Source of the DNA: Clostridia bacterium
Lineage (GTDB): Bacteria; Bacillota; Clostridia; Oscillospirales; Acutalibacteraceae
Direction of reading: 5' to 3'
Length of the DNA stretch: 64,000 nt
Assembly (NCBI GenBank): GCA_017618135.1
Contig: JAFZUV010000001.1
Location: 1,627 to 65,626 of the forward strand
The notes below the pieces were generated by a model. That model had not been told where the DNA came from. It did no database searches and worked only from the letters and a program-made list of their open reading frames with translations. Shown here piece after piece: positions 3,154 through 24,597 of this stretch; the stretch's first letter is position 1; every line of letters starts with the position of its first letter. A program made the translations under genes and the position numbers.

Positions 3154-3279
3154 TTCTTTTCAATGTTTTTTTAATTATTATAAATCATACCAAGCTCAAA
3201 GTAAAACATTTTTTATTTTTAGTTCGTTATAATCGCCGTAAATAATTGTTAGAATATCATTAAGAAGCGAGGCGATAAT

Positions 3280-3510
3280 ATGAACACTGAATTTACGGAT
3301 AAATATGTAACCTTGGGTCTGAAAATTGCTTATTACAGAAAGAAGGCTGGTTATACTCAAGAAGTGTTTGCTGAGCTTATTGATAAAAGTGTGAATTTTG
3401 TCGGTCAAGTCGAAGGACCCGGCACAATTAAGGGAGTATCTCTCGAAACGCTTTTTAAGATGGCGCAAGTGCTTAACATACCGCCCTCAAAGCTGTTGGA
3501 GGACGATTAA
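3280..3510 (+). CDS. XRE-family HTH transcriptional regulator (76 aa)
   Basis: LGLKIAYYRKKAGYTQEVFAELIDKSVNFVGQVE is a canonical Cro/C1 HTH. Confidence 0.85.
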   Translation: MNTEFTDKYVTLGLKIAYYRKKAGYTQEVFAELIDKSVNFVGQVEGPGTIKGVSLETLFKMAQVLNIPPSKLLEDD

Positions 3511-3517
3511 AGCATTA

Positions 3518-3548
3518 AAGACTCTCCGCCGCCGGCGGAGAGTCTTTA
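3518..3548. terminator. intrinsic terminator hairpin after the XRE gene
   Basis: Perfect inverted repeat AAAGACTCTCCGCCG/CCGGCGGAGAGTCTTT directly after the stop. Weak U-tract. Confidence 0.45.
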
Positions 3549-3611
3549 AATACCGGGGAAGGGAAAATGTCCGGCATTTTTTGCGGTTATATATTATATA
3601 ATAATATTATA

Positions 3612-3640
3612 CTTGACATCCGTCGGCGTTTTTGTTATAA
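3612..3640 (+). promoter_or_regulatory. sigma-A type promoter with perfect consensus (TTGACA, 17 nt spacer, TGnTATAAT) driving the fibre/giant-protein operon
   Basis: TTGACA at 3612-3617. 17 nt spacer. TGTTATAAT (extended -10) ending at 3640. Predicted TSS ~3647. Confidence 0.65.
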
Positions 3641-3647
3641 TTTGCAC

Positions 3648-3752
3648 AGTAATCTATAAGGGCAAGACTGCAGCGATGTAGTTACGCAAAACTATAGGGA
3701 CTCACTGAGTCAGCCAGTTGCAGATATACTGCACCGGCTGATTATTTTTTTT
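3648..3752 (+). ncRNA. candidate GEMM/c-di-GMP-I riboswitch with terminator expression platform (5' leader of the operon)
   Basis: Leader contains GGGCAAGAC, then a 5-bp hairpin capped by GNRA tetraloop GCGA (CTGCA-GCGA-TGTAG), then ACGCAAAAC. These resemble the conserved GGCAAAC...GNRA...ACGCAAAGC core of GEMM-I. A small hairpin GACTC-ACT-GAGTC follows. Then a terminator: stem CAGCCAG-TTGCAG/CTGCAC-CGGCTG followed by TTATTTTTTTTT (3709-3752). Confidence 0.4.
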
Positions 3753-3794
3753 TCGGCGGCCGGCAATTAGGTAAAAAAGAAAGGGGCGAGGCTG

Positions 3795-4760
3795 TTGAAT
3801 CTTACAAAAAAACAAAAGCGATTTCTCTTCGGTAAGAGTATGTCGCTTACCGCGCTCGCTCTTTTGATAATATTAACCGTAGTGGTAGGCTCCATTATTT
3901 CGCTCGGCTGGTTTGCAAACAGAGATACGGCGGATGCAAACGGAGTTAGCGTTACCGCGAAAGAGGAGCGGTTTGAGCTTGCCGTTTCAGGAGAGCAGGT
4001 ATTGCCGTTTGCCAATGATTCGACAATTATAACCTATCTTAATTCGGTTGCCGGCGGCAGCTACGAAAAACGCGCTTCAACCGAAAGGGAGCACACATCC
4101 ATTCTTTGCAGGGTAATAAATGAAAAACCGCATATTGCCGGCAGTGATGAGTTAGCTCCCGGCGCATTCGGAAGAATAAGCTTCGATATAGTTTTGCAGG
4201 CGGGCGATCCCGTAAGAGATTATGAGATATCGCTTGATTACCTGCCTCTTGATTTAGTCGCCGGTGTTCCTCAGGCGGTAGATAACGCTGACATTGATGA
4301 TCTTAAAGATTTGATTAGCGGTCACATTCTGCTTTTTAACACACGCTCCGCCCTTATAAACGGAGGATACTACTACTCTGACAGGATAACGAACAAAAGA
4401 TTTGTTTTCAGCCCTTCCGAGCATACGCCGAGCGTCGAGTCCGACGGTATTCACTACACGGTTGAGTTTTACTTTATCTGGCCTGCTACATTTGCTCAGT
4501 TGGCTTTGAAGCAAGACAGTCCGAAACTGCATTTGCATCCTGTATTCCAAACCGAGGCGTTGCGGCTTGAAATGCTTAATTACATAATTGAAAATCAAGA
4601 TGAGTTTTTCAGAAATCTCGGCCAGGGCATCAATTTTTCCGCAGAGTCGTTCGAGGAAACCTTTTTTGTAGAGTTGAGCGACGGGTATAATACCGCCGAT
4701 CAGTTCATTGGTGATAAAGCTCATTTTCTTGTGATTTGTTCTACAGTAAATCCGGTGTAA
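3795..4760 (+). CDS. secreted TasA/camelysin-like protein (SipW-cognate-type N-terminus), paralog 1
   Basis: N-term K-rich segment, hydrophobic helix, then LGWFANRDTADANGVSVTAKEE (compare TasA GGGTWAAFND...GTLDLSAKEN). Internal LAPGAFGRISFDIVLQAGDPVRDYEISLDY resembles TasA LKPGDKLTKDFQFENNGSLAIKEVLMALNY. C-terminal YTVEFYFIWPATF resembles TasA IKLQFSFEATQWN. TTG start with AAGGGG RBS. Confidence 0.5.
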   Translation: MNLTKKQKRFLFGKSMSLTALALLIILTVVVGSIISLGWFANRDTADANGVSVTAKEERFELAVSGEQVLPFANDSTIITYLNSVAGGSYEKRASTEREHTSILCRVINEKPHIAGSDELAPGAFGRISFDIVLQAGDPVRDYEISLDYLPLDLVAGVPQAVDNADIDDLKDLISGHILLFNTRSALINGGYYYSDRITNKRFVFSPSEHTPSVESDGIHYTVEFYFIWPATFAQLALKQDSPKLHLHPVFQTEALRLEMLNYIIENQDEFFRNLGQGINFSAESFEETFFVELSDGYNTADQFIGDKAHFLVICSTVNPV

Positions 4761-4779
4761 CGATCCGTAGGAGATATGT

Positions 4780-5541
4780 ATGAAAAACAGATTGAACCCA
4801 AAAGCTTTATTTGATACAAGGTTGTTAAGACCGTTTACAGCGCTTGTATTGGCGTTTGTTTTGCTTACCTTGTCGCTTGTTGCCATCGCGTGGTTTTCTT
4901 ACGTGAGAAGAATGGGCGCGGTGGCTGAAATAACCGACCCTACCGCTATTTTCATAAACGCGGGCAATGCGGAGGATGTGCGGTATCTGGATCTCGGCGG
5001 CATTGATGTTGAAGGTGAGAACAGTTACAAGGATTTTGTTTTCTGCATTCGCGGCAACCATGTAAGCAACTATAAAATTCAGCTTTCCTATACCACAAAC
5101 AACCAATTTGATTATGAGATTTATACTGCGACAATGGTGACCTCACCTGGAGCGGTACCGGCAAATCCCGAAAGCCTTGTGGTATATGATACGCATGACG
5201 GTTCTTCGGGTACGCAGTATTATTATGCCGCCTCGGGCGCTACACCGCTTCCGGGCAGCTTTTTGAATAAAGATACAGGGGCTTCCGAAAAGCTGGCGAA
5301 GAATAACGACAGCTATTATGAGGACACATATACTCCCGGGGGTACAAACAGTACATACGATAACCGCCATAAATACGCAATTCCGCTTTATTGGCACACC
5401 TCGAGCTCTATTTCTCCGGTTATGGACGCAAACTCTGATTTTTGCGACTATTTTATTCTCAGAGTAATTTGGGACAGTAACAGCAGAAACAACAAGGAAA
5501 CGGACATAGTTTACATAGCGGCGAAGAACATTTCTGCTTAG
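4780..5541 (+). CDS. secreted TasA/camelysin-like protein, paralog 2
   Basis: N-terminal anchor then AIAWFSYV (compare CalY GGGTFAYFSD). FVFCIRGNHVSNYKIQLSY aligns with paralog 1 ISFDIVLQAGDPVRDYEISLDY. KYAIPLYWH aligns with HYTVEFYFIW. 20 nt from the upstream gene. Confidence 0.45.
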   Translation: MKNRLNPKALFDTRLLRPFTALVLAFVLLTLSLVAIAWFSYVRRMGAVAEITDPTAIFINAGNAEDVRYLDLGGIDVEGENSYKDFVFCIRGNHVSNYKIQLSYTTNNQFDYEIYTATMVTSPGAVPANPESLVVYDTHDGSSGTQYYYAASGATPLPGSFLNKDTGASEKLAKNNDSYYEDTYTPGGTNSTYDNRHKYAIPLYWHTSSSISPVMDANSDFCDYFILRVIWDSNSRNNKETDIVYIAAKNISA

Positions 5542-5589
5542 CTTATTGATAGTTGTTAATATCTATTTTAGTGAAAGGAGCGCCAAAGT

Positions 5590-6612
5590 GTGAAAATTAT
5601 GAAAATCATAAATACACAAAAGCGATTGATAATCGCCATAGTAGGCTTGGCGCTTATTGCCGCAATAATTTCAGGTGTGGCGCTCTTTGCCGAGTATATA
5701 AAGAGCAGCAGAGCCAAAAGGGTTATCGCGTCATACGGCGACGAGGGCTCGCTATTCTCATCCAATTATCTCGTTATGAACAGCAATACAGCGGTAAACG
5801 TTTATAAAAGAATATTCTATACAGAGAGTGGAGATTCTCCCGTTTCCGGCGGCGTTACCGTCTGTAATTACGCTCAGGGAAACCCCACGCGCGTCTATGA
5901 AAGCGATATAGAGTATGTTCTTACGGCAAGGCTTGTTATGCTCGGAGAATCGGCGGGAATGTATGTCAAGAACAACGCTACCGCGGGGGATGTAGGCGCG
6001 CATACCGTTAGAATAAAGCTTAAGGATTCGGGCACGGTTACTCTTTCTTCTTCAAACCTGTCGCATACCTTTGCGGCTTCAACACTCAGTCACAGGTCGG
6101 CGGTAACCGATATTTGCGACCTTGAATTTGACAGCGGCTTTAAAGACGCCGGATCTCTTTGCCTCTACCTCTGTGCTACTCCTACCGGTTCTCAGGCCGG
6201 CGTTCACACGCTTGACGCGGTATTTACGGTAGCGCTTAACACCGGTGAGGCGCGAAATGTCTGGGAAGGCGAGTTTAACGAAAAGACGAACACAGGGGTT
6301 CCGGCACAGCCCTATTACGATGGATTTAATTATATGATAACCGGAATGGGCAGCGGCAACTGCACGCTTTCCTGGAATAATCAGAAGCTGCAGATAAGTC
6401 AGGTGTTCTTAAGTGAACACGGCCTGACTCCGACTGTCGCGGGCAATCAATCATCGGTAACATTTCCTGTGGATTCGGATATTGTTAACCGCTATGATGT
6501 ACAGTTTTATTATGCTGATTCTTCGGTAACCTTCTCAAGTTGGAGCGAGCTTACCGGAACATCGAGCAGTGACGGATATGTAAAGCTTGTTTATGTAGAA
6601 TCTGCCGAATAG
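5590..6612 (+). CDS. secreted N-terminally anchored protein, probable diverged paralog 3 of the TasA-like set
   Basis: N-term MKIMKIINTQKR + hydrophobic helix + ALFAEYI. S/T/G/N-rich beta-type composition. Same operon, 49 nt gap. Confidence 0.35.
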   Translation: MKIMKIINTQKRLIIAIVGLALIAAIISGVALFAEYIKSSRAKRVIASYGDEGSLFSSNYLVMNSNTAVNVYKRIFYTESGDSPVSGGVTVCNYAQGNPTRVYESDIEYVLTARLVMLGESAGMYVKNNATAGDVGAHTVRIKLKDSGTVTLSSSNLSHTFAASTLSHRSAVTDICDLEFDSGFKDAGSLCLYLCATPTGSQAGVHTLDAVFTVALNTGEARNVWEGEFNEKTNTGVPAQPYYDGFNYMITGMGSGNCTLSWNNQKLQISQVFLSEHGLTPTVAGNQSSVTFPVDSDIVNRYDVQFYYADSSVTFSSWSELTGTSSSDGYVKLVYVESAE

Positions 6613-6639
6613 GCAAAAACTGTTTTAAAGGGTAGAAAA

Positions 6640-9600
6640 ATGGTAAAACACTTAAAATCAAACAAGTTAATAGCATGGTGTACGGTATGCTGCCTTTGCG
6701 CAGCTGTTATCGGCGTTTCATTCGGTTTGTTGACTGTTTTGGCAAACGATTTGCCCGAACAGCCGGCTACGACTGTTGCAATTTCCTCTTCCGATGACTT
6801 GATTACATACTCGCGCGAATACTGGCGGGGAGGGCACAATCCGAACGATACCATACAACTGGCGTTAAGCTCCGGTACCGGCTTCCTTTTGCCGTCCGCT
6901 GATGAGGGATATATTTCCATAGGTAACGATGACCGTCCGTTCAACGGCAAAATTGAAATTGCCGATAATGCAATAAGCAGTTTTATGACCGATGTGTCGC
7001 TTTTCGGTACTGTTACTACCGATATGCGCATTGTAAACGCTTCGGATGTGCCGCGTGAAATTCAGATTGCGCGTATAGAAGAGGCGGATTCTCCGCTTTT
7101 TGCCGCAAGCGTTGTGAAGGGTGCTGTCAACAACACCACCGATTGGCGCGTGTGCTTAAAGCCTGATGACCGTGACTCTGTAAACAAAACGGCTTTCTCT
7201 TTTGCCGGAGCGATAGGAAGTATTGCGGCGGAATGCAAAGTCGGCTTCGATTTTACGCACGATTCGGTTTCGTATTTGAGTGTTCCGGCAAACGCGGTCA
7301 GTGCCTCGGATATAGGGCTTATATGCGGCAGTCTCGGCGCTGATGCAGAGCTTACCGTTAAAATAACATCGACAAACTCCTTTAATATAACCTCTTCCGG
7401 CGGTCACGCGGGCGGTATAGCGGGCATAGTTGCGGCAGGGGCTAAGATTATATTGGGCGATAATTATACATCTCCCGCGAATGTTACCGCTTCCGCATCA
7501 GGCAAGTACGCGGGCGGAATTGCGGGTTACGCCGCTGATTCCGAAATAGACCTTAATTCATATACCGCGACCGTCTCAAAAACCGTATCGGGCGCGGCAG
7601 GCGCCGGCGGTGCGTATGGATACTATTTAAGCACTGTGGGCAACGGCACCGGGGCGAGTGCCGGCGTTCGTACATTCGAGCTTGCCGGTATCAATACGGA
7701 TTCCGGTTTTGTTATTGCGCGCGGTACCGATGCCGGTGCGTTTATAGGAATGCTTGAAGCGCAGACCGATATTACCGTTACCGAAACGGGAGCTGTTGTA
7801 TCAGATTCGACCTTCACAAAACAGGTCAGTTTTACGGGTGGTACAAATCGCGGCGGTATTATAGGTAAATACGCAAATAATAATCTCATAAACACATTGG
7901 ATATACATAATGCAAAGGTAAAGGTGCTTGCAAGCAGCGGTACTACTTCCTATAGCGGCGGCGTAGTGGGAAATCTTGGAAGTACCGGCCCCGTTTATGC
8001 AAAAATCGGCGATTTTCGCCTTTCGGTAGCAGGGTCCGCGGCAATGCAAGGCGGTCTTCTCGGCACCGCCAACTCCACCGGCAGTTTTATAGATGTTCAA
8101 AATCTTATAGATATCGACGGTTCGACTACTGCGGGTCTTGTGAATTACCTTAATGCCGGAGTTCTGAGAGTTTCGGGGACTACCGATCTTGCAGGCGCCA
8201 CGCATGGTACGGCACAGTTGGTAAGACAGAGGGGTAACGCTTTGGTCTATGCTTTAGGCTCCGGCTCAGACGCGAGCTGGACGCTCAAGCGCGGCTCAGG
8301 TCTGGTCGACGATATCGGTGACTGGGGCGAGATATTAAGGCTTTCCACTGCTAACGGTCTTGCGGAAAGCGATTTCTTTACGGTGAATATGGGCGCGCAT
8401 AGCGTGACTGTGACAGGTCATGTTCAGAATATGGGCACTATCAAGGATTTTGTAAAAACCGCGCTCAATATTCAGATAAACTATCAGGACTGTGGCTCTC
8501 TGCTGCTTTCCTCCGCTTCACGCAGCAGTACGATACTTGCTTCAAATCTTTCTATAACCGCAGATATTGATTTAAGCGGAACCGGCATAGAGTCGCTTAC
8601 AAAGGACAACGGCGAAAACGGCGTTTACACCGGCTCGTTTAACGGCAACACCCATAAGATAACACTTGCGATCGGCGAACCGTACGGAAAAAGCGGCTCC
8701 ACTACGCTCAGCGCGCCCACGAACATAGGCAACAACAATTACGGTACTATTATTGATCATTATTATTCAGGTCTTTTCGCAAAAATGCAGAACAATTCGG
8801 TAAGTAATCTTACGCTTGACGGATATATATCTCTTTGCGGTTGTAGAAATGTTGATTATAAGGTTGGAGCGGTAGCGGCGAGCATTTCGGGTACCACCAC
8901 GCCGCTGACCCTTTCCGGGATCGATTCCAAAACGGATATATATCTTTATACACAAGGTACCAAAACTACAACTATGAACATTTTCGCCGGCGGCGCGATA
9001 GGATATATCGAACCCGAGACCGGCGGCACAGTTTCCATATCCAATTGTACTTTTGAAAGCGACATTACATTAAAGAGCACCATTGCTCACGGCAACGCGG
9101 TAGGCGGCGCCATAGGCAAGGTGGATTCCGTAAGCAGTCTGACCTTCGACTTTGACGATATCACAATAGGCGGTACATACAACAACAGAGTTACCGGCTC
9201 TTCGGAGTACGCAGGTCATAAATACGGAGGACTTATCGGTTATATCGCCCCCAACTCCGGCTCCTTTACCCGCAATGTTACGCTCAATAATATTACCGTT
9301 ACAAACGATGTTTCCATAACATCGGGCGTTAAATGCACCACCCGCTCGGGCGGCGCCGGTGCGTTTATCGGCGGCGAGTGGGAGGATACCAATGTTACTA
9401 TCGGTACATTAGGCGATACCGACGGTGTTATTATAGGTGAAACAGCCGCAGGTACCGGTCCTTCAATAACCGTAACCTCCGCAGATTCAAATAAGCCGAC
9501 GGTTTCAGCGCTTGTTCAGAAGGCTACGGGACATTGGACTGTAAATCATACGAAGGTAAACAAGGCTTCCGTTACCGCGTCGTCAAGCTCGGTGTTCGGT

Positions 9601-12600
9601 TTTCTTGTGGGAGACGGGGTATGTCACAGCAGCAGCACCGCCGCTTCATCCACGCTTTATCTTGATTTGATAAGCGACGGATATGATATAGCGAACACTG
9701 TGTTCAGCGGCACTTTTGATGTGTTTGACGAGGTAGTGGGATTTTCCGCGGTAATGTCAAGCAATATAGAAGATAACGGGCAGGCGATAGTGTCTATACG
9801 CACGCCGTCCGGCGCGGCGCTTATTATGAATGGTTCCGCCTGCAATACATATCAGAATCAAACGACATACGGTAAAACCACCAAAACTTCAAATTCAAAC
9901 ACAAGATACTACTATAATCTTGACCTTATCCGCGAGAAGGCAACCAAGAGTGACGCCGAAAAGATGTTGCTTTTAAGCCTTTATAAATACGCCCACAGAA
10001 CCATACGAAACAACGGTTATTTTAACAACGCATACAGTAACAGGATATCGGGTAGCTGCGATATGTCGGGGCTTTCCTACTATCCGGTAGATGCTTCGGG
10101 TATAACCATACAAAACGCGAGTATTAAATTCTATAATGATGAAATAGAGGCGGGCGAAGGCGGCTCAGGTGACAGTGACGGCGCCGTGCGTTCCACCCGT
10201 ACGGACAGTCCGAGAACACAGCATTATATGATGCATGAATCGGTATTCCGCAATTACACCGGGGATTTGACCGTCAGCGGACTTCACCTTGCAGGAAATG
10301 TAAGTAACCAACACGGCGGGGATGACAGCGGTTTCCTTATCTGTGGAATGCTCGGGAACACAAACGATACGGCGAGAATTTCCATTTCGGGCGTTGTTCT
10401 TGACGGTGCATATATAGTGCGCTCAGGCAGTTATGCACCGCTGCTTATAAACAGGATAGGTAAAAATGTAAAGTTTGAGCTTGATGGAGTTGCCGCTATT
10501 GCCGGCGCCGGTACTAATATGTATCCCACAACAACTACGGCTGTGGCCTCGAGCCTTATAGGTGATGTCGGCTCGGATACCGCCATAAACATCAATCTTA
10601 CCTTCTCGGATATCCGCCTTGATGCGAGAACCGCGACAGGAGGACTCAGCGGTCTTTCCACCGCTTACGGAACAAGCCGTTCTATTTTTGACAGGGCAAC
10701 GCTTCTTAATTCCTTCAGATTTTTGAACGGAAGTATGGGCGAGTACAATTATACTTACAGCGAGGACTGGACTTCCTCTCAGCATCATGCAACCTACGGC
10801 GAGGAGGTTACAACTTCGGTTGAATATGCCGGTAGGCAGGATCATTACTACGATGATATTACGCATTATACGCATCCGACTGATCCCACCGGTGCTTCGG
10901 CATACGATTTCTCGTCGGGCTTTTTGCCGTATGTGTATGTAGACTACGATTCCGCAACGCTATATCACGAAATAAAGGTAAATGTTAAGGATGTTAATCT
11001 CACATCCGGCTGCGGTCAGTATAATGACCCTTATATAATTACCGACGGCGCGATGATAGCTACCGCCGCGAAGATTTTAAGCGGCAGTCCCGATAACGGT
11101 ATAGAAATACAATTACCTACTGATGTAGGCAGTGAGGATATGTGGTGTACATCACTGTCTACCCACGCGGTTTATACCTATAACGGAACAAACTTTGTAC
11201 TTAAATCAGATGGCAGTGACCCTAAGACGCTCGAAGTTGTCCGCACCTATTTGGCAGGCGCGTATTACAGCATTACGGCGGCGGAGATAGAGCTTCCCGC
11301 AACATATGTGGGACTGGGTTCGCTTACTGATTGGAGCAATACTACAGACTATGAGTGTAAATATGCGTTCAGGGGTGTAATTGTCGGCAACCGTAATATT
11401 ATTGTCAACCACTCGGCCAATCCGCTTATTAAAACAGCTAACGGATGTGTTGTAAAGGAAGCCACGGTGACGACCGACGCGTCGATTACCATAAGCCAGA
11501 ATTCCGTTCTGCCCTTCCGGTATGATAACGCGGGCTGTGCTTCATACGGAGCGGTAATAGGCCAGGTTATGGGCGGAGACAATATTATTGATCATGTGGG
11601 AGTAGGCTTTACCGGTACCGCCATTACGGCTGACTCTACAAATTGTAAAAGACTGGTTCCCGTAGGCGGCTATGTAGGTGTTATCGTAAACGGCGGCGTA
11701 GTATTCAAAAATATGGATAATGATGTTGACGCCACCGGTTTGCCCGCGGCAAAGTGCGCGTATATCGAGGACGCCGGCTGGCTCTATGTAAATCCGATAA
11801 TAGGCAGAGTAATAGCAGGTTACGCCTTTAACGAGGCTAACGCTTATGCCCGGCATTCGACCAAGCTTGATAACGGCAATAAGAACTACGACATTTCGGA
11901 TCTCAATCCGAATGATACAAAGCTTACGGTAAACGCTACCTCTTCAAGTAATTACACCGTTTCAGCGCCAAACGCACAATCGCTTTATATACTTTCGTGC
12001 ATTGTAAATTCCGGCGCAGGAAGCGCCGCGTACAACGCGAGTACCGAGCAGGATTACGCGGCGATCGCCAATACTCCGTGGATAGCTTACAGGAATTACA
12101 CCTGCACCCGTTGCGCCGATTACGATGAGGTAGGACATTCTGCCGCGGCTGACGGCGACTTTGCCACCGTAAGCGCTCAGGATGTTTACAGCGGCAGTAA
12201 CAAGACACCTTATATAATTAGGAACTATACGCAAAGCTCATCGGCTGTTTTCAAGGCGCGAAGCATTTGCGGCAATTCGGTTATAAATGAAATATCGCTT
12301 TCGGCGGGCACTTATAATTTAGCCAACAGCTTCAGGGGTATAGGCGGTATTTATACGAATAATACCGCGTGCAGGATACAGTTTAAGAAGCTCACCGGAA
12401 ACGGTGCCGAGCTTAACCTTAATATGCGCTATCTTGAATACAACCACGAAAGCGGCAACCAGGGTACTAAATCCAATAATCAGATTGAAAACTATAAGCC
12501 GTTTGCGGGCGCTGGATTCGGATTTTTCAATAATATGTATCTGAGCGGTTTTTCCGCGTCAAGCAACACAAACAGCGTTAAGAACTTGACTGTGTCGGGC

Positions 12601-15600
12601 AGTGTGTTCTACGATATAAAGAAACTGGCTGACGGTTCGGCTATAAAATATGCCTACGGTTGGCATAATTACAATAATTTGACAGGCTATTATCCCGATG
12701 TTGCCGATAGGATTGAAGCCGGAACGATACTTAATGTCGGCGGTATCGCCGGTACAACCAATAACAGCTCGTATCTGACTGGCGTAACGCTCAGCGGGCT
12801 GAGTGTTGAAGGAGCTAAGAATACCGGCGGATATATAGGCTACAGCGTTTCAAAGCATCTTGTCGCGGAGGGTTGCTCTACAAGCGGAATCAGTGTAAAC
12901 GGCGGCTTTTCCGCAGGCGGCATTATAGGAGGACTCAGCGGCAGTCAAATAAACGGCAACAGCGGGGCGGGCGCTAACTTTACCGTAAAGGGTACCTCCG
13001 AAACTCCTTCTACAATAAGCTTTACCAATATAAATGTTAAGGGCGAGCCAAGCTGCGCTAAAACCGACTTTAAAGATTTTTTACAAATGTTCCACTGCGC
13101 CGGAGGTCTTGCGGGTTATGTCAGCACGGGTAATTCAAATACCGCAACGGTTCAGTATGTAAGCGTTCAAGGTGGTTCAATTACCGCAACCAATAAAGAA
13201 AAACGCCCAAGCGATATGAGATACAAGATAATATTAGGCGGTATGTTCGGCAGACTTGAAGCAGCCTGTGTTAACTTCTCTGATTCTTCGGTCACCGGCG
13301 TTACGATTGACGGAAACACCTGTGGCGGACTTATCGGCTGTTCGAGAAACAAGTTAAACGGTAGCATTACAAACATATCGGTAACCGGCGGAACGGGCAA
13401 ATCGATCACGGCTACAAATATGGTCGGCGGCATTCTCGGATTTTACTATGGCGGCGACGCTTTAAGTCTCCAGGTATCCGCGTTCACCCTTGAAAACTAT
13501 TCGATTATTTCTTCGCACGACGCGGAAAAAGCGAGTGCCGGCGGCCTTGTGGGAACCCTTACAACGGGCGGCAACACGGTATTTAATATTTACGACAGTA
13601 TAATTCGCAACTGTACCGTATCGAGAAGAGCAACATATGTTACAGGCGACAACCAACTTTTAGGCGTAGGCGGTATGTTCGGCGCGCTTTCCGCGTCCAA
13701 CGGTAATGTCAGGGGTCACAATATTCTTATTGACGGCGTCAGTGTTGTAAACAACGGTGGTAACAAGGCGCCCGGTATGATGATAGGTACAAACAACGGC
13801 TTGTCGGTTAAATTTACCGGTGTGTCCATACAGGGCGGAACCTCCGCCACCGTGCCGGTTGTGGGAATTGATTTAAACTCTTCCGGTGTTTACGGCTCGT
13901 CCGGGTATGTGGTTATGGCTGACTTTGACGGCGACTGTAAAGCGCTTTCGCACAATGAATCCGAATCAAGCTTTTATAACTCAACAAACGACCTTGCGGC
14001 GGCAAGCCCGTTTGTTACGGTAAATCCGTATTCGAGCGTTGGCAACAACCTGCTTAACCTTACGGGGGACGGCGTATCGTCAACCGTAGCGGGACTTCCC
14101 ATTCAGGAAATAATCGCGGGCGATATAAGATACAACTATGCTTCGGGTTACAGGTCTGCTTTCTCGACGAGTCACCTTTCAACCTATAATTATGAGCAGA
14201 ACACCTCGTTTACCGATGATTTTGCCGTGCTTATAGTTGACGATATCAGCCGTCTTAACACAACGAATATGATAAACGCCTATATAAATCTTATGGCGGG
14301 TACACAGTATGACTATACTTCGGATCTTTCCAATGTGTTTGGCGTGAGCATATATAAGATGGTATATGATGAAGGCGAAGGCAAGTTTGTCAAATCAAAT
14401 GAAGCGGCAAACCTTAAGCGGCTGGGCGGTCAGTTCTATATGAATATCGACAATGTTGATACCGCCGGCAATATGTTCTCGCTTATAGATGTTAAATACT
14501 ACGACCCCAATAATACAAGTAAAACCGCGTATCACCTTTATATACCGGTTCTTGTAAAGAAACTGTTGACATTTGATTTCGTAATTGCAACGGGCACCGG
14601 AACTAACTACGAGCGCGCGTGGTATGACGACCGCTTCGGTAAACCGCTTATGGAAAATCTCGGCACTCCGGCAAGCGTATACTTCAAATATACATACTTA
14701 CGCTCGAAGGAGGAATGGGAAGCGGCGGCAAACGGCGGTGAAAATCTGCTGCGCAACTATGATAAAAAGCTTACCCTTTCAAAATCAAGCGCAATTCCCG
14801 ATCTTCCGGGCACTACAACTCTCGTGCTTGTAGACGCAAGTCGGGGAAGCAAACCGTATTACGCGAGCTTCTCAGATGTATACTCGGCGGGCGTGCTTAA
14901 CCTTTCAGGCTTTAAAGAAACGCTCGGCGACAATACAAGCACGGCGTTTACCCCGATTAATCTTGCGGATATGTTGAATCTCACAGCCGCCGCCGACGCG
15001 GAAGGTACACTCGTTTCCTGCGCCGAGAATGTGGCTACGGTGAAAGCGCAATTAAACGGTGTTGAAACCTTCTTCCGCGTAGCGACTGACAGTGACTCGG
15101 AGCTGCAGCACTATACCGTTTCGGTAGGACTGAACAATAATGGCAGTGGAGTTATAGAGCTTGATGAGCCGTATTACATTTCCTTCTTTACGGAGTCTAC
15201 CGTAAGTAATACCGTATATCACTATACGATAAGCGCTCCCGCAAGCTTTAATGATCCTTCCAATCCGTCTCGTATTGCGGATGCGGATAAGCTGCAAAAC
15301 CGCGAAGGCACCGCTCACCTGATACTCGGAAATATATTTGTTCAAACCGGAGTATCTTTAACTACGACTCCGGCGAATACAGAGATGTCGGTTCTTACAA
15401 ACAACCATACGCTCGGAATAAATATGGGTACTACCGTAACTCTTGCGGCGTCACTTAAAAATGAGGTTCAGGGTTATCTCGGCACAAATTCCGGCATAAA
15501 TGTTTTCCATAGCTTTATGTTAAAGCTCACCCGTACGGATGAATCGGGAGCCAAAAAGGTTATTGAAGGTTCGCCCTCCGTCAGCGGCACATATACGATA

Positions 15601-16512
15601 TCCTCTGCTAACGGAACCGTTGCGGCAACTAATCCGGCGGATAATCTTATAAATGTTACCAGCGGCTACGCGGAGGTATGTAGTGCAAATGTAAACCAGA
15701 ACATAAACGCATATCTCGTAAATGGCGGCGGTGCCGTGATAAACGCTACCGTTTCTATGGATTATCAGACTGACGGTGCCGTGTCTGCTCAGTTCCCGAA
15801 CCGTGAGGATCCCATGAACACAACTATCGGTACTACCGCGTCTTGTACATCTAATATTGCGTATGACCGGGCGGGTACTTCGTACAGTAAGATTGCGGCA
15901 GGAGCTTCTGATTCTGCGGGTCACTCATACTACTGTAGAATTGATAATAAAAAAGCAAAGCTATATTATAATGTAGAGAGCGATATATTTGTGGGCGATT
16001 ACGGACCGCTCGGCATTAACCCGCTTGACTCCGGCGCCGCAACAAGAGTGCCCTTCTCAACGCTGGCGATTTACGATATATCCGATATCGAGCAGGTGGC
16101 GGCGGGCTACGATACGGTAAGGGTGGCAATCAGCCTTTATAAAAAGACCGACGGATATTCCGCGAGGCTTAACATCCCCACATATATGAGCTCGGTACAG
16201 ATGAAGAATTACACCGAAGAGACCGGGTACTCGGAGAGCAGAACCAATCCCACCGAGTTTGTATTCATCCTGCCGCGCTCTGCGGTAGAGCGTGCTTCCG
16301 CTACGGCTACTTCGCTTGAAATACCCATAGATTATACCGTCTTTACGGGCGCTGAGTTTGAGAGTGCGGGACTTGAATATTCAAATTACAAAATATCAAT
16401 TTCCGCCGAGCTGTTAGACAGCAGCGACCCTTCTTCTCCGCTTATTGCCTCTCAGGCTGAAAATTATCTCATATATACAAATGCCCGTATATTGCCTGAC
16501 TTTATAGATTGA
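6640..16512 (+). CDS. giant (3290 aa) secreted/N-anchored surface protein built from GLUG-like GG[ILVM]xG beta-helix repeats. No LPXTG, dockerin or other C-terminal anchor
   Basis: Uninterrupted 9.87 kb ORF. Signal/anchor MVKHLKSNKLIAWCTVCCLCAAVIGVSFGLLTVLAND. At least 18 repeats such as AGGIAGY, GGIIGKYANNNLINTLDIHNAKV, GGVVGN, GGLLGT, GGAIGY, GGLIGCSRNKLNGSITNISVTG, GGILGF, GGLVGT, GGMFG. These fall in two blocks (~7357-9190 and ~12697-13840) separated by low-repeat S/T/N/Y-rich regions. 28 nt after paralog 3. Confidence 0.8.
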   Translation: MVKHLKSNKLIAWCTVCCLCAAVIGVSFGLLTVLANDLPEQPATTVAISSSDDLITYSREYWRGGHNPNDTIQLALSSGTGFLLPSADEGYISIGNDDRPFNGKIEIADNAISSFMTDVSLFGTVTTDMRIVNASDVPREIQIARIEEADSPLFAASVVKGAVNNTTDWRVCLKPDDRDSVNKTAFSFAGAIGSIAAECKVGFDFTHDSVSYLSVPANAVSASDIGLICGSLGADAELTVKITSTNSFNITSSGGHAGGIAGIVAAGAKIILGDNYTSPANVTASASGKYAGGIAGYAADSEIDLNSYTATVSKTVSGAAGAGGAYGYYLSTVGNGTGASAGVRTFELAGINTDSGFVIARGTDAGAFIGMLEAQTDITVTETGAVVSDSTFTKQVSFTGGTNRGGIIGKYANNNLINTLDIHNAKVKVLASSGTTSYSGGVVGNLGSTGPVYAKIGDFRLSVAGSAAMQGGLLGTANSTGSFIDVQNLIDIDGSTTAGLVNYLNAGVLRVSGTTDLAGATHGTAQLVRQRGNALVYALGSGSDASWTLKRGSGLVDDIGDWGEILRLSTANGLAESDFFTVNMGAHSVTVTGHVQNMGTIKDFVKTALNIQINYQDCGSLLLSSASRSSTILASNLSITADIDLSGTGIESLTKDNGENGVYTGSFNGNTHKITLAIGEPYGKSGSTTLSAPTNIGNNNYGTIIDHYYSGLFAKMQNNSVSNLTLDGYISLCGCRNVDYKVGAVAASISGTTTPLTLSGIDSKTDIYLYTQGTKTTTMNIFAGGAIGYIEPETGGTVSISNCTFESDITLKSTIAHGNAVGGAIGKVDSVSSLTFDFDDITIGGTYNNRVTGSSEYAGHKYGGLIGYIAPNSGSFTRNVTLNNITVTNDVSITSGVKCTTRSGGAGAFIGGEWEDTNVTIGTLGDTDGVIIGETAAGTGPSITVTSADSNKPTVSALVQKATGHWTVNHTKVNKASVTASSSSVFGFLVGDGVCHSSSTAASSTLYLDLISDGYDIANTVFSGTFDVFDEVVGFSAVMSSNIEDNGQAIVSIRTPSGAALIMNGSACNTYQNQTTYGKTTKTSNSNTRYYYNLDLIREKATKSDAEKMLLLSLYKYAHRTIRNNGYFNNAYSNRISGSCDMSGLSYYPVDASGITIQNASIKFYNDEIEAGEGGSGDSDGAVRSTRTDSPRTQHYMMHESVFRNYTGDLTVSGLHLAGNVSNQHGGDDSGFLICGMLGNTNDTARISISGVVLDGAYIVRSGSYAPLLINRIGKNVKFELDGVAAIAGAGTNMYPTTTTAVASSLIGDVGSDTAININLTFSDIRLDARTATGGLSGLSTAYGTSRSIFDRATLLNSFRFLNGSMGEYNYTYSEDWTSSQHHATYGEEVTTSVEYAGRQDHYYDDITHYTHPTDPTGASAYDFSSGFLPYVYVDYDSATLYHEIKVNVKDVNLTSGCGQYNDPYIITDGAMIATAAKILSGSPDNGIEIQLPTDVGSEDMWCTSLSTHAVYTYNGTNFVLKSDGSDPKTLEVVRTYLAGAYYSITAAEIELPATYVGLGSLTDWSNTTDYECKYAFRGVIVGNRNIIVNHSANPLIKTANGCVVKEATVTTDASITISQNSVLPFRYDNAGCASYGAVIGQVMGGDNIIDHVGVGFTGTAITADSTNCKRLVPVGGYVGVIVNGGVVFKNMDNDVDATGLPAAKCAYIEDAGWLYVNPIIGRVIAGYAFNEANAYARHSTKLDNGNKNYDISDLNPNDTKLTVNATSSSNYTVSAPNAQSLYILSCIVNSGAGSAAYNASTEQDYAAIANTPWIAYRNYTCTRCADYDEVGHSAAADGDFATVSAQDVYSGSNKTPYIIRNYTQSSSAVFKARSICGNSVINEISLSAGTYNLANSFRGIGGIYTNNTACRIQFKKLTGNGAELNLNMRYLEYNHESGNQGTKSNNQIENYKPFAGAGFGFFNNMYLSGFSASSNTNSVKNLTVSGSVFYDIKKLADGSAIKYAYGWHNYNNLTGYYPDVADRIEAGTILNVGGIAGTTNNSSYLTGVTLSGLSVEGAKNTGGYIGYSVSKHLVAEGCSTSGISVNGGFSAGGIIGGLSGSQINGNSGAGANFTVKGTSETPSTISFTNINVKGEPSCAKTDFKDFLQMFHCAGGLAGYVSTGNSNTATVQYVSVQGGSITATNKEKRPSDMRYKIILGGMFGRLEAACVNFSDSSVTGVTIDGNTCGGLIGCSRNKLNGSITNISVTGGTGKSITATNMVGGILGFYYGGDALSLQVSAFTLENYSIISSHDAEKASAGGLVGTLTTGGNTVFNIYDSIIRNCTVSRRATYVTGDNQLLGVGGMFGALSASNGNVRGHNILIDGVSVVNNGGNKAPGMMIGTNNGLSVKFTGVSIQGGTSATVPVVGIDLNSSGVYGSSGYVVMADFDGDCKALSHNESESSFYNSTNDLAAASPFVTVNPYSSVGNNLLNLTGDGVSSTVAGLPIQEIIAGDIRYNYASGYRSAFSTSHLSTYNYEQNTSFTDDFAVLIVDDISRLNTTNMINAYINLMAGTQYDYTSDLSNVFGVSIYKMVYDEGEGKFVKSNEAANLKRLGGQFYMNIDNVDTAGNMFSLIDVKYYDPNNTSKTAYHLYIPVLVKKLLTFDFVIATGTGTNYERAWYDDRFGKPLMENLGTPASVYFKYTYLRSKEEWEAAANGGENLLRNYDKKLTLSKSSAIPDLPGTTTLVLVDASRGSKPYYASFSDVYSAGVLNLSGFKETLGDNTSTAFTPINLADMLNLTAAADAEGTLVSCAENVATVKAQLNGVETFFRVATDSDSELQHYTVSVGLNNNGSGVIELDEPYYISFFTESTVSNTVYHYTISAPASFNDPSNPSRIADADKLQNREGTAHLILGNIFVQTGVSLTTTPANTEMSVLTNNHTLGINMGTTVTLAASLKNEVQGYLGTNSGINVFHSFMLKLTRTDESGAKKVIEGSPSVSGTYTISSANGTVAATNPADNLINVTSGYAEVCSANVNQNINAYLVNGGGAVINATVSMDYQTDGAVSAQFPNREDPMNTTIGTTASCTSNIAYDRAGTSYSKIAAGASDSAGHSYYCRIDNKKAKLYYNVESDIFVGDYGPLGINPLDSGAATRVPFSTLAIYDISDIEQVAAGYDTVRVAISLYKKTDGYSARLNIPTYMSSVQMKNYTEETGYSESRTNPTEFVFILPRSAVERASATATSLEIPIDYTVFTGAEFESAGLEYSNYKISISAELLDSSDPSSPLIASQAENYLIYTNARILPDFID

Positions 16513-16524
16513 TTTTATATGAAT

Positions 16525-16560
16525 AACCGCCGAATCGAAAAAGATCCGGCGGTTGTTTTT
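16525..16560 (+). terminator. intrinsic terminator closing the 4-gene operon
   Basis: CCGCCGAATC-GAAAAA-GATCCGGCGG hairpin followed by TTGTTTTT, immediately after the giant ORF stop. Confidence 0.6.
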
Positions 16561-16705
16561 AACTAATATAGCAAACTGCACAAAACAGCCAAGAAATAGT
16601 TGTTTAAACCGTCATATTTTGACTATTTATTTTATTGGTACCTCATGATAAAATAAATCATAGCGTATATAAGAATGAGAAAGATGAATAAAGGATGACG
16701 ATGAT

Positions 16706-17332
16706 TTGATTAAAGGCTTTTTTAAGAAACGGTATTTTTTGCCGCCTTTCCTGGTTTTAGCAACAAATCTGACAGTAAGCTTTTTGACTCGCCCGTTTAT
16801 TGACGCGGCAGCTACCTGCTTAGTAACTACCGTTGACAGGAAGATTCCATTTGTTCCGGAATTTATCTACATATATGTTTTTGCGTTTGTTCAGTGGCTT
16901 ATATGTATTCTGGCGGTTATGATAAAGGATAAAGAAAAATCCTTTTATTATTGCGGCGGAATAATATTCGGAAATCTTATGTCGGGCATAGTGTTTTTGG
17001 TGTTTCCCACAATTATGTCCATTCGTCCGGAGTATACGGGCGGAGGTTTAACAGGGGAGATTGTCAGGTTTATTTTTGCGGCGGATACCCCGCCGATGAA
17101 CATATTTCCGTCTATTCATTGTCTTTTCAGCTGGGGCTGTATGCGAATGATATGCGCCTTAGGCTCTGTGCCGAAAGCTTTGAAGGTTTTTAACGCTGTA
17201 TTTTCGGTACTGGTATTTTTATCGGTTTTGTTTGTAAAACAGCATGTGGTATATGATATCCCCGCGGGAATATTTGCTTTTGAGGCAGGTCTTTTCTTGA
17301 CGAGAAAACTATTTCTGCGAGTAAAAGTGTGA
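16706..17332 (+). CDS. PAP2-family membrane phosphatase-like protein
   Basis: Multi-TM. PAP2-like motifs SIRPEY, FPSIH (PSGH-like), KQHVVYDIPAG (SRxxxxxHxxxD-like). TTG start. Confidence 0.45.
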   Translation: MIKGFFKKRYFLPPFLVLATNLTVSFLTRPFIDAAATCLVTTVDRKIPFVPEFIYIYVFAFVQWLICILAVMIKDKEKSFYYCGGIIFGNLMSGIVFLVFPTIMSIRPEYTGGGLTGEIVRFIFAADTPPMNIFPSIHCLFSWGCMRMICALGSVPKALKVFNAVFSVLVFLSVLFVKQHVVYDIPAGIFAFEAGLFLTRKLFLRVKV

Positions 17333-17345
17333 GGAGGAAACAAGT

Positions 17346-18521
17346 TTGGAAGCATATGCGTTACAGTCTTTTATAAGTGTTTATCTTTTGTTTGAATTAG
17401 CTCTTTTGGTTTTTTCGGGATATATCTTTCTGCAAACATCAAATGATGTTATGAAAAATACCGAACGCGCAGGATTTAAATGTTTTATTGTAGCATTTCA
17501 GATTTATACTATTCTTACCTGTGTTCAAACCCTGCAAGAATACGGCATTATTGATGTGTCGGTTGGTTTGTATAAGGGCTTATGCTTTGCATTGCTGTTG
17601 ATTGTTATTGTTAATGCGTTTTGCTATTACAATGTTTTCATACAGCATTTTGATATGGGCTTAAACCGCAGCTATAAGGCGGTTGCTTTAGGCGCTTTGC
17701 CTTTGTTGGCAACAATCATTCTTCTAACGGTTTCGCTTTTTAACGGAATTGTATTTGATGTAGATAAGAACATATCTTTTGTAAGAGGTAAATGGTATTA
17801 TCTGATACACATAATGGTATGCATTTATTTTATATCCATAATAAGGCGTTCATTTCTCAGAGCAAGAGCGCTTGGCACCGCGCGTGCAAAGCGGGAAGTG
17901 CTTGGTATATTAGGCCTTACCGCTTTCCTTATATTATGGGTTATAATTGACGATGTTCTCAAAGGAACCACTGTTATACCGGTTGTTATATTTGCGGTAC
18001 TGCTTTATCTGTTTATAAATTCACAAAAGGAAAATATTTATACTGATGCGCTTACGGGAATGAACAACCGCAGAAAGGCGGAAAACTATCTGGGCGAAGA
18101 GGTAAAAAACACTTCGGAAAAAGAGCCTGTATATTTGTTTATGGGTGATATTAACGGCTTTAAGGAAATAAACGATAAATACGGCCATTATGAGGGTGAT
18201 TGTGCGCTTATGATTTTTTCCGACGCGGTCAAAAAGAGCGCCACCGCTTATAACGGCTTTGCGGCACGCTACGGAGGCGACGAGTTTGTTTGGGCATGGC
18301 GCCCGATTAAAAACGGAGATGTTGACCCCGAAATGGTTATGAGCGATATACGCCACAGAGTTGAGGCTGAATGTAAGGCTCAGAACAAGAAATATATAAT
18401 ATCTCTTTCAATAGGTCATGTATTATGTACTGATCCTAAGATAAGCGCAATACAGTATTTAAGGGAGGCGGACAGAAAAATGTACGCCGATAAACAGGGA
18501 TATTACAGAACAAAAAAATAA
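17346..18521 (+). CDS. membrane-bound diguanylate cyclase (7-TM sensor region + GGDEF)
   Basis: ~7 TM helices, then GGDEF domain: LTGMNNRR, MGDINGFKEINDKYGHYEGD, RYGGDEFVWAW (intact GGDEF). Confidence 0.85.
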   Translation: MEAYALQSFISVYLLFELALLVFSGYIFLQTSNDVMKNTERAGFKCFIVAFQIYTILTCVQTLQEYGIIDVSVGLYKGLCFALLLIVIVNAFCYYNVFIQHFDMGLNRSYKAVALGALPLLATIILLTVSLFNGIVFDVDKNISFVRGKWYYLIHIMVCIYFISIIRRSFLRARALGTARAKREVLGILGLTAFLILWVIIDDVLKGTTVIPVVIFAVLLYLFINSQKENIYTDALTGMNNRRKAENYLGEEVKNTSEKEPVYLFMGDINGFKEINDKYGHYEGDCALMIFSDAVKKSATAYNGFAARYGGDEFVWAWRPIKNGDVDPEMVMSDIRHRVEAECKAQNKKYIISLSIGHVLCTDPKISAIQYLREADRKMYADKQGYYRTKK

Positions 18522-22018: not shown

Positions 22019-22094
22019 TTTATTATTTTATCACAAAAGTAATGCGTATTCAAGTAGTGGAACAACAAGTATCAAGTTGAATTCTTACCTTTAA

Positions 22095-22127
22095 CAAAAA
22101 ACGCGGGTGTTCGTTTGAACACCCGCA
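22095..22127 (-). terminator. intrinsic terminator after spoIIE
   Basis: CGCGGGTGTTC-GTTT-GAACACCCGC hairpin with T-run on the minus strand (AAAAAA on plus at 22095-22101). Confidence 0.6.
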
Positions 22128-22142
22128 TTTCTTTAAAAACGG

Positions 22143-24443: not shown

Positions 24444-24597
24444 TTTTTACACCGCCGATATGTGATTTTTTTTAATTATATAACTCAGGCGGCATTTAAT
24501 TTGTCAAAATAAAGGGTTGATTTTTCGCAAATTGTGTCCTAAAAAACAAACGAATAAAATTTGTCAAACCGCAAACAATAAAACCGCAGGTGATGTT

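Follow-up and report, generated by a model that had tools for sequence, protein, structure and literature searches.

The window analysed here, a 64-kb stretch of DNA from a Clostridia bacterium, contains a four-gene operon that is conserved among Firmicutes of gut and rumen and as yet uncharacterised. In it, three small genes (up1, up2 and up3) are followed by a giant gene coding for 3290 residues. We propose that this self-contained operon builds a cell-surface adhesion or matrix structure whose production would be induced by c-di-GMP, and we give this reading a probability of roughly 0.55. That the four proteins associate physically, and that adhesion is their function, is what we infer from the features described below.

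Results and discussion

Organisation and conservation of the operon

All four genes lie on the forward strand, separated by gaps of 19, 48 and 27 nt. The first, up1 (3795..4760), codes for a putatively secreted protein of 321 aa whose N-terminal signal segment is followed by the conserved motif (S/T/A)x(A/G)/WFxxN..V...G.xV, the slash before W marking the predicted cut. The signal segment of up2 (4780..5541, 253 aa, likewise putatively secreted) ends in AxA, with WF after the cut. In up3 (5590..6612, 340 aa), the third apparently secreted product, the motif past the signal segment reads A / (A/E)(Y/F)T(K/S)S..AKRV, with the cut after the first A. Conserved aromatic motifs thus sit directly behind the predicted cleavage site in the mature small proteins. 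For up1 no match was found in Pfam, NCBIfam, PHROG, PADLOC or PDB, and searches with up2 and up3 gave no family matches either. A paralogous origin of the three was considered and abandoned, as hhalign comparisons were unconvincing and the likeness falls mostly within the signal segment.

Relatives of up3, 24-60% identical, were found in 19 metagenome loci, and the giant gene is directly next wherever the contig continues; up2 is conserved in every locus covering its region. In all 25 related loci the covered genes are collinear in the order up1-up2-up3-giant, and 11 of these loci, besides the window, hold all four. The metagenome-assembled genomes bearing the cassette, from rumen and human gut, are named Ruminococcus, Eubacterium, "Bacilli" and Clostridia.

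Transcription would start from a promoter at 3613..3641 (+) composed of TTGACA, a 17-nt spacer and TATAAT, with an extended -10 TG. It matches the consensus at 12 of 12 positions and is the sole perfect sigma-70 site between 3100 and 17400. The operon is closed by an intrinsic terminator at 16525..16562 (+), AACCGCCG...CGGCGGTT followed by GTTTTT, which was read directly from the sequence, its loop exceeding the length allowed in our terminator scan.

A c-di-GMP riboswitch in the operon leader

Between the promoter and up1, the 5' leader contains a full-length match to the c-di-GMP-I riboswitch aptamer (3651..3725, +; Rfam RF01051, 50.2 bits against a gathering score of 35, E 7.5e-7). The expression platform at 3708..3755 (+) is an intrinsic terminator hairpin (-18.9 kcal/mol, ViennaRNA) with a run of nine U residues behind it. 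The 5' arm of the hairpin is the 3' strand of the aptamer, and the hairpin is part of the leader's MFE fold computed with ViennaRNA. Terminator and aptamer 3' end overlap alike in all eight aptamers examined, that is, in the window and seven others. Because of this overlap, aptamer and terminator would compete and binding of c-di-GMP should therefore allow read-through, so that the geometry predicts an ON switch.

The riboswitch recurs immediately 5' of the first small gene in six other loci, distant ones included: L005, L010, L012, L016 (two riboswitches in tandem), L017 and L020. Five of them score 52-62 bits, and L017, which carries the RF03167 variant, scores 59 bits. Among the 18 loci with upstream sequence, 11 lack the riboswitch.

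Genes of c-di-GMP turnover are located nearby. A gene for a membrane GGDEF diguanylate cyclase (17346..18521, +; Pfam GGDEF, 99.2 bits) is a neighbour of the operon outside the conserved cassette, and its product could be a local source of the ligand. The window also holds a gene of the HD_5 (HD-GYP) type at 25286-27367 on the reverse strand, and another such gene directly follows the giant gene in L001.

The giant gene is real

The giant gene (6640..16512, +) is a single open reading frame from ATG to stop, free of internal stops, as the first-pass annotation had stated. The same annotation called its product one of the largest possible in a Firmicute, which is too strong: the family comprises 493 clusters (407 of them at E<=1e-30) with a median length of 3416 aa, against which 3290 aa is ordinary. 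An intact orthologue of 3402 aa is present in Ruminococcus sp. RUG12790. The concern that the reading frame might be an assembly artefact at its repeat blocks could be laid to rest. Neither tandem repeats nor direct DNA repeats of at least 25 nt occur within it, BLASTP of the protein against itself gives no internal hits, and at least 10 independent contigs yield the identical 3290-aa protein; collapse of repeats is thereby ruled out, and the 3290-residue gene is real. In L001 the gene is seemingly split, which is due to a scaffold gap of 10 N and involves no frameshift.

Fold of the giant protein

The giant protein contains 22 copies of the motif G[GA][ILVMAFY][ILVMAFYG]G, against 1.5 +/- 1.2 (maximum 8) in 500 shuffled sequences. 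The copies form four groups: block 1a (aa 258-475, 7 motifs; 7411..8064, +), block 1b (aa 784-911, 4 motifs; 8989..9372, +), a pair at aa 1637-1680, and block 2, whose motifs at aa 2034-2348 (nt 12739-13683) belong to a GLUG-like right-handed beta-helix predicted for aa 2034-2430 (12739..13929, +). The two blocks proposed in the first-pass annotation (7357-9190 and 12697-13840) were thus placed closely enough; the first of them is in fact two sub-blocks about 300 aa apart, and the mid-protein pair has to be added. The repeat spacing given there as 25-30 aa measures 29-45 aa.

Structure models of segments of the protein reached pLDDT 84.5 and 85.4. In the models a right-handed beta-solenoid is predicted, with best superposition on 3N6Z or on the beta-helix of IgA1 proteases. 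The middle third of the protein is largely beta-helical and is its best conserved part, so the regions of about 1000 aa that had been regarded as of unknown fold are not all of that kind. Block 1b lies upstream of the model of aa 951-2100, the first ~110 residues of which, just downstream of the block, are beta-strand; block 1a is probably a beta-helix too, by analogy with block 2.

Membership in Pfam Glug (PF07581) is marginal: one 500-aa tile scored 20.6 bits (aa ~2299-2328) against a gathering cut-off of 20.5, and an overlapping tile 14.3. The whole protein gave no Glug match at E<=1, and blocks 1 and 2 of five homologues gave none at E<=0.1. The original GLUG assignment finds agreement at the level of the fold, as a GLUG-related solenoid. 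Apart from the marginal Glug score, all four operon proteins fall outside Pfam, NCBIfam, PHROGs and solved structures.

A conserved family-specific core (aa 1050-1650; 9787..11589, +) has the near-invariant motifs RYYYN (1089), SYYP (1146), QHYMMH (1194), YAPLLIN (1265) and GCGxYNDPY (1457). Behind block 2 follows a C-terminal region of about 860 aa (13930..16509, +), modelled at pLDDT 85.4 as mixed alpha/beta and beta-sandwich domains, for which no specific structural match was obtained. The region is conserved across the family, though a word-index search gave just five relatives.

The beta-helix fold is just as characteristic of polysaccharide lyases, hydrolases and phage depolymerases. The giant protein could be a secreted or surface enzyme of the pectate-lyase-like beta-helix superfamily that degrades plant cell-wall or extracellular-matrix glycans, possibly in dispersal, with RYYYN, QHY.MH and GCG.Y.DPY as active-site motifs and the small proteins as accessory factors. 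We regard this as unlikely, while of the three alternatives considered it fares best. Its rumen and gut origin would suit such an enzyme, and so would the fact that conservation is strongest in the core outside the repeats, where polar and aromatic motifs are near-invariant. Pfam Pectate_lyase_5 matches exist in tiles of the giant protein and its homologues, at sub-threshold scores of 17.1 and 20.6 bits (cut-off 24.3); this family carries an annotation as an adhesive domain. Against the enzyme stand the lack of any CAZy-type Pfam or NCBIfam family in the tiles, even at E<=10, and a full-length family profile that meets no solved enzyme in PDB. The best fold matches, in IgA1 proteases and 3N6Z, are non-catalytic beta-helix domains, and a length of about 3300 aa kept over more than 400 clusters together with an obligatory trio of small secreted proteins would be unusual for a simple glycanase. 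Dispersal is conceivable if the riboswitch is an OFF switch, in the manner of C. difficile class I riboswitches that repress a protease releasing surface proteins; the terminator geometry, however, predicts an ON switch. A PDB sequence match to a tryptophan halogenase (aa 1621-1732, E 3e-4) was discarded as a chance glycine match on GAVIG / GGYVG, which the full-length family profile failed to reproduce.

Genomic setting

The genes flanking the cassette differ among loci, large serine recombinases stand immediately upstream of it in L003, L004 and L014, GC content is 0.46-0.49 over the giant gene against ~0.41-0.45 in the flanks, and many of the fold matches are phage tailspikes or depolymerases. 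These observations would fit a cassette carried as cargo by a mobile element or prophage, with a giant protein that is tailspike-like or acts in contact-dependent antagonism. We nevertheless hold such an origin to be improbable. In the window the locus has no recombinase and lies among chromosomal housekeeping genes. A search of 2.9 million viral contigs with up3 as the query found no relative, and none of the four proteins matches PHROG; a phage structural protein can be rejected on these grounds, the more so as Sec signals are predicted on all four proteins and virion proteins are devoid of them. PADLOC returned no defence family except for one weak AbiC match, so a known defence system is rejected as well. 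The C-terminus is conserved and not polymorphic, unlike that of toxin-delivery proteins.

Predicted export and possible retention at the surface

Signal-peptide-like N-termini with small residues at -3 and -1 are present in all four protein families. In the giant protein, a cleavable Sec signal peptide is predicted for aa 1-35 (6640..6744, +; ...LLTVLA|ND), and a positively charged n-region, hydrophobic core and small-x-small site are seen in the window protein and its homologues alike (VLA/ND, VSA/ED, VFA/EE and VQA/EE, slash at the cut); an N-terminus of this kind was seen in 100 of 116 full-length relatives. As read from these sequences, the signal would be cleaved off. The protein had been suggested to be held by its N-terminal hydrophobic segment, which is unlikely, since a small-x-small cleavage site follows the segment as in ordinary Sec signal peptides.

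At the other end, LPXTG is absent from the giant protein (C-terminus ...NARILPDFID) and from the last 60 residues of all 116 full-length relatives, and tiled Pfam scans of the giant protein detected no SLH, dockerin or cell-wall-binding domains, just as the first-pass annotation had it. Its conclusion that there is no recognisable C-terminal anchor stands as far as known anchors are concerned. The C-terminus is not featureless, though: the last residues of the C-terminal region (aa ~3240-3290) form the conserved motif YSNYK.x.S.EL...NYLIYTNARILPDFID, and the terminal motif (..IYTNA[KR]I.PDFI) is kept in 101 of the 116. The other suggestion made there, attachment through partner proteins, draws strong support from the three-gene set that invariably precedes the giant gene.

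Comparison with known systems

A right-handed beta-solenoid is shared by the giant protein with 3N6Z (BACOVA_03286), whose repeats have been described as distant relatives of GLUG, and with the beta-helix of streptococcal and Gemella IgA1 proteases (7JGJ, 6XJB, 7UVK). Identity is only 12-16%, and Pfam Glug is marginal or absent in the giant protein, which is about 2.5 times longer, consists of several helix segments with a family-specific core and C-terminal region, and is without the zinc-protease domain, LPXTG and G5 of IgA1 proteases. The association with GLUG might point to a secreted metalloprotease of the IgA1-protease type (M26 / Zmp), a reading that is extremely improbable and refuted in its mechanism by the missing zinc motif: HExxH and HxxEH are absent from the 3290 aa (any HExxH occurs in only 3 of 116 relatives), Peptidase_M26, G5 and LPXTG gave no matches, and the structural matches span ~250-310 residues of chains 1277-1295 residues long, a stretch which, going by the fold, we read as the non-catalytic beta-helix.

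Further fold matches include PfbA, HxuA, pertactin, Ag43 and EtpA. With PfbA of S. pneumoniae and with large Gram-negative beta-helical adhesins, namely two-partner secretion (TPS) passengers of the FHA / HxuA type and autotransporter passengers, the giant protein shares an elongated right-handed beta-helix, which serves there, and may serve here, as an adhesive rod. PfbA, unlike the giant protein, has ~700 aa and an LPXTG anchor, and TPS and autotransporter passengers depend on outer-membrane partners, which monoderm Firmicutes do not possess.

As regards control, the B. thuringiensis collagen adhesin Cap is governed by a class I ON riboswitch. The C. difficile genes CD2831 and CD3246, which code for large secreted surface proteins, likewise have a c-di-GMP riboswitch in their leaders, in this case of class II. 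As in the window, riboswitch-controlled Firmicute adhesins have c-di-GMP turnover genes nearby, and more surface protein is predicted at high c-di-GMP. They are, however, single genes for sortase-anchored (LPXTG-type), collagen-binding or Ig-like proteins, whereas here there are no sortase signal, a different fold and three obligatory small partners. In C. difficile, c-di-GMP riboswitches control surface adhesins, yet its class I riboswitches are OFF switches and the adhesins stand behind class II (PMC7865049), so that the window riboswitch belongs to a class that is OFF there.

The third comparison is with tapA-sipW-tasA of B. subtilis. Mature TasA and TapA begin with AFNDI and AFHDI, which act as donor strands (PMC10151520). 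Shared features are small secreted proteins with an aromatic motif at the predicted cut (WF.., AYT.., EFT..), a plausible role in a matrix or fibre and, in one locus only, an adjacent SipW-class signal peptidase. The latter is encoded immediately 3' of the giant gene in L003 (TIGR02228, 59.1 bits, cut-off 51.85; 86 bits with NF046067 SipW, under the cut-off of 190); the 64-kb window and L001 have no SipW-type peptidase. In contrast to that system, up1-up3 are without detectable homology to TapA or to TasA / camelysin (Peptidase_M73). No Pfam or NCBIfam match to the latter was found, and profiles of up1 and up3 (16-17 sequences) met no TasA chain in PDB at E<=10, nor did up2 with a profile of three sequences only. 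A giant beta-helix partner is absent from TasA systems.

Proposed mode of action

In the surface structure that we favour, the operon would be transcribed from the consensus sigma-70 promoter, and bound c-di-GMP would permit read-through of the leader terminator. All four products would be secreted by the Sec pathway on their N-terminal export signals. The giant protein would then shed its signal peptide and fold into a long rod made up, in order, of right-handed beta-helix segments with GGxxG, GLUG-like turns, the family-specific core and a C-terminal cluster of alpha/beta and beta-sandwich domains. As it lacks a covalent wall anchor and any known non-covalent one, the three small co-secreted proteins would either hold it at the surface or build it into a fibre or matrix. 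The mature N-termini of the small proteins, with their conserved aromatic motifs, recall the SipW substrates TasA and TapA, and purely by this analogy the small proteins might assemble by donor-strand complementation.

A bolder version, which we put forward only tentatively, is that the operon specifies an undescribed and widespread Gram-positive surface-appendage system switched by c-di-GMP. A SipW-like or type I signal peptidase would process the small proteins, whose conserved N-terminal strands would let them polymerise or dock into a stalk or anchor; this would bear a beta-helical adhesin of 3300 residues, held through its conserved C-terminal motif, and the class I riboswitch would turn the apparatus on directly by c-di-GMP. 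If this is true, such appendages would be widespread among rumen and human-gut Firmicutes, with more than 400 sequence clusters.

Conclusions

Fibre digestion and gut colonisation depend on the attachment of Ruminococcus, Eubacterium and similar Firmicutes to plant fibre, to mucus and to each other. To our knowledge, their adhesion molecules beyond cellulosomes, sortase-anchored proteins and type IV pili are poorly known. The family described here comprises hundreds of clusters of ~3400-residue proteins encoded in an operon of fixed composition, which, as its leaders read, is wired directly to c-di-GMP in many lineages. The operon adds a class I c-di-GMP riboswitch with an expression platform that predicts activation and, as a possible new apparatus of adhesion or biofilm formation, is a concrete candidate open to test.

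Giant gene and its protein family

The giant gene (6640-16512, + strand) is one uninterrupted ORF coding for 3290 amino acids, among which G, S, T, A and N are abundant. The first-pass annotation had advised a check for an assembly artefact or collapsed repeats; the ORF is real. Gene calls on at least ten independently assembled contigs give the identical 3290-aa protein, and an intact orthologue of 3402 aa is present in the MAG Ruminococcus sp. RUG12790. Tandem repeats and direct repeats of 25 nt or longer are both absent from the DNA of the gene, leaving an assembler nothing to collapse. The protein contains 22 copies of the motif G[GA][hydrophobic]2G, where shuffled sequences (n=500) give 1.5 +/- 1.2; the copies form groups at aa 258-475, 784-911, 1637-1680 and 2034-2348. 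These positions agree roughly with the two repeat blocks annotated at first; the spacing of copies is 29-45 residues instead of the proposed 25-30. BLASTP self-comparison of the protein yields no internal matches because the repeats are too diverged.

Word-index homology searches returned 5-6 relatives, suggesting rarity, whereas exhaustive HMMER search with aa 1001-2100 found 493 representative clusters (50% identity), 407 of which reach E<=1e-30; for such a low-complexity, fast-diverging giant protein the former approach would have badly misjudged rarity. Lengths among the best 149 of the 493 matches are concentrated at 3200-3900 aa (median 3416), and the query always aligns to approximately residues 1000-2150 of the matched protein. 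The window's giant is thus a typical representative of a large family whose members share one domain order. Few matches fall between E 1e-3 and 1e-30, which makes the middle third family-specific. Conservation of the protein against two orthologues is fairly uniform along the length (40-75%), with peaks outside the repeats at aa 1050-1450, 1600-1650, 2450-2750 and 3050-3150. GGxxG motifs are common across the family (median 19 per member), and near-invariant motifs include RYYYN, SYYP, QHY.MH, YAPLLIN and GCG.Y.DPY. One of the most conserved, QHYMMH(E) at 10219-10236 (aa 1194-1199), sits within a confidently modelled loop; the exact QHY.MH pattern is found in 74 of 116 relatives, and its Q and H are invariant across a 56-sequence alignment. 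It may bind metal or act in catalysis, and is not a zincin motif.

In a divergent relative, the giant protein is coded for by two ORFs of 1427 and 1908 aa (L006:3098-7381 and L006:7574-13300), about 190 nt apart. As the same arrangement is seen in a second independent assembly (L007), this may be a genuine split. The apparent break in the L001 orthologue is a 10-N scaffold gap. In L023 the giant gene (2997-9467) stops early, at 2156 aa, with a C-terminus unrelated to the family, and is abutted on the opposite strand by an unannotated 463-aa gene (9417-10808), possibly a transposase as read from its N-terminus. This giant gene was probably disrupted by an insertion.

Predicted fold and termini

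Neither Pfam nor NCBIfam matched the whole giant protein, PHROGs and PADLOC gave nothing useful, and a full-length family profile found no relative by sequence among solved structures. With 500-aa tiles, Pfam Glug reached 20.6 bits (cut-off 20.5) at approximately aa 2299-2328, and Pectate_lyase_5 stayed below its threshold; Glug matched neither block 1 nor block 2, the GGxxG repeat blocks, in five homologues. Two segments were modelled with AlphaFold2 from alignments of 34 and 28 family members. The model of aa 951-2100 (pLDDT 84.5, pTM 0.76) is nearly all beta; that of aa 2101-3290 (pLDDT 85.4, pTM 0.61) consists of a beta-helix of about 330 residues, corresponding to block 2, with mixed alpha/beta and beta-sandwich domains making up the remaining 860 or so residues. 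The annotated "GLUG-like beta-helix" thus holds for fold and resemblance; the Pfam criterion does not establish membership of the family. Repeats of 3N6Z have been described as distantly related to GLUG, and a homologous domain occurs in IgA1 proteases (PMC4021314). The giant protein lacks the HExxH zinc motif, which excludes an IgA1-type metalloprotease.

The N-terminus comprises a basic n-region, a hydrophobic segment and VLA|ND. Homologues share this layout (VSA|SG, VSA|ED, VFA|EE, IKA|DA, VQA|EE and similar), and a signal-type N-terminus is present in 100 of 116 full-length relatives. By this pattern it is a predicted cleavable Sec signal peptide, making the membrane attachment through the hydrophobic segment that had been proposed unlikely. 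The reported lack of a C-terminal LPXTG was confirmed and extends to all 116 relatives. The end is conserved all the same: 101 of them, distant ones included, finish with the conserved motif ...TG..FE..G..YSNYK[IV].[LI]...L......[ND]Y[LIV]IYTNA[KR][IV].P[DE][FY]I, which suggests a docking or folding function.

Four-gene cassette

Upstream of the giant gene lie three small ones, up1 (3795-4760), up2 (4780-5541) and up3 (5590-6612), the four genes being separated by gaps of 19, 48 and 27 nt; an intrinsic terminator (16525-16562) closes the operon. Metagenome search with an up3 alignment and contig look-up of giant homologues gathered 25 related loci from rumen and human gut, including MAGs named Ruminococcus, Eubacterium, "Bacilli" and Clostridia. 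The order up1-up2-up3-giant is kept wherever the contig extends; flanking genes vary. The small families have no match in Pfam, NCBIfam, PHROGs, PADLOC or PDB sequences and show no clear paralogy to one another. Each begins with a signal segment ending at a -3/-1 small-residue site, immediately followed by a conserved motif: WFxxN..V...G.xV (up1), WF(Y/F)..R (up2) and (A/E)(Y/F)T(K/S)S..AKRV (up3). In L010, an extra ORF (1998-2498) upstream of the riboswitch carries up1-type signal and motif (...STLGWFARNRKTDAD) and is preceded by a 649-aa protein of no known family, which hints at further up1-like paralogues in some genomes.

That conservation starts precisely where the mature N-terminus is predicted is reminiscent of TasA and TapA, SipW substrates whose N-terminal strands (AFNDI and AFHDI) drive donor-strand complementation (PMC10151520). 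In L003, the giant gene is directly followed by a SipW-class signal peptidase (15760-16812; TIGR02228, above cut-off) of 350 aa, with an unusually long C-terminal extension (an acidic Ala/Glu-rich tail). No such gene was found within the 64-kb window or in L001, and the SipW/TasA connection is a lead, not demonstrated membership. Beyond this peptidase lie an unannotated 530-aa protein and a DUF2357 protein, which may form a restriction-type pair.

Regulation and neighbouring genes

A perfect promoter, TTGACA-17-TGnTATAAT (3613-3641), precedes a c-di-GMP-I riboswitch (3651-3725; RF01051, 50.2 bits against 35); no other Rfam family was found in the window. A strong terminator hairpin (3708-3745, -18.9 kcal/mol) followed by U9 uses the 3' strand of the aptamer as its 5' arm; the two structures are therefore mutually exclusive. 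From this geometry, ligand binding is predicted to allow read-through, i.e. to act as an ON switch. Riboswitches of this type also lie just upstream of up1 in L005, L010, L012, L016, L017 and L020, and the terminator overlaps the conserved 3' end in all eight aptamers; eleven other loci lack the riboswitch. The L016 aptamers are in tandem (3242-3319 and 3372-3447), each followed by a separate terminator-like hairpin and U-run, and such doubling usually makes the response to the ligand sharper. In C. difficile, where c-di-GMP riboswitches control surface adhesins, class II activate and class I repress (PMC7865049), so the ON assignment here is provisional.

Genes for c-di-GMP turnover are located nearby: a GGDEF cyclase (17346-18521) and an HD_5 (HD-GYP type) protein (25286-27367); in L001, an HD_5 gene immediately follows the giant gene. 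A 208-aa polytopic membrane protein with a weak PAP2-superfamily match, below cut-off, is encoded at 16706-17332, after the giant-gene terminator and before the GGDEF gene; the arrangement is identical in the independent contig L027. Downstream neighbours at 18553-25239 are an SbcC/SbcD-like pair (AAA_15 / SMC_N, then Metallophos), SpoIIE (22143-24443) and a SleB-type cell-wall hydrolase (24517-25239), a set that indicates a sporulating Firmicute as host.

Discussion

The best-supported model, to which we assign a probability of roughly 0.55, is that the cassette codes for a c-di-GMP-induced surface adhesion or matrix apparatus. All four products would be exported, and the giant protein would form a multi-segment beta-helical rod, by rough estimate a few tens of nanometres long from about 2400 solenoid residues. 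Having no covalent anchor, it would be retained or polymerised via the three small partners. The beta-helix fold and conserved core motifs would also suit a giant polysaccharide-active enzyme, the main rival, which we regard as rather improbable. Less likely is a mobile-element or phage-derived role, suggested by genes for large serine recombinases (Resolvase / Recombinase / Zn_ribbon_recom) that directly precede the cassette in L003 (466-1998), L004 (3770-6926) and L014 (114-1652), three loci without riboswitch; these recombinases could reflect mobile-element carriage or a DNA-inversion/excision switch.

Large beta-helical adhesins and surface proteins controlled by c-di-GMP riboswitches are already known. 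Searches of the accessible literature found no paper on this four-gene cassette. What appears to be undescribed is the combination, in a fixed four-gene cassette, of giant proteins whose length is conserved and whose core and C-terminal region are specific to the family, three small secreted partners outside known families, and a class I riboswitch with predicted activating geometry.
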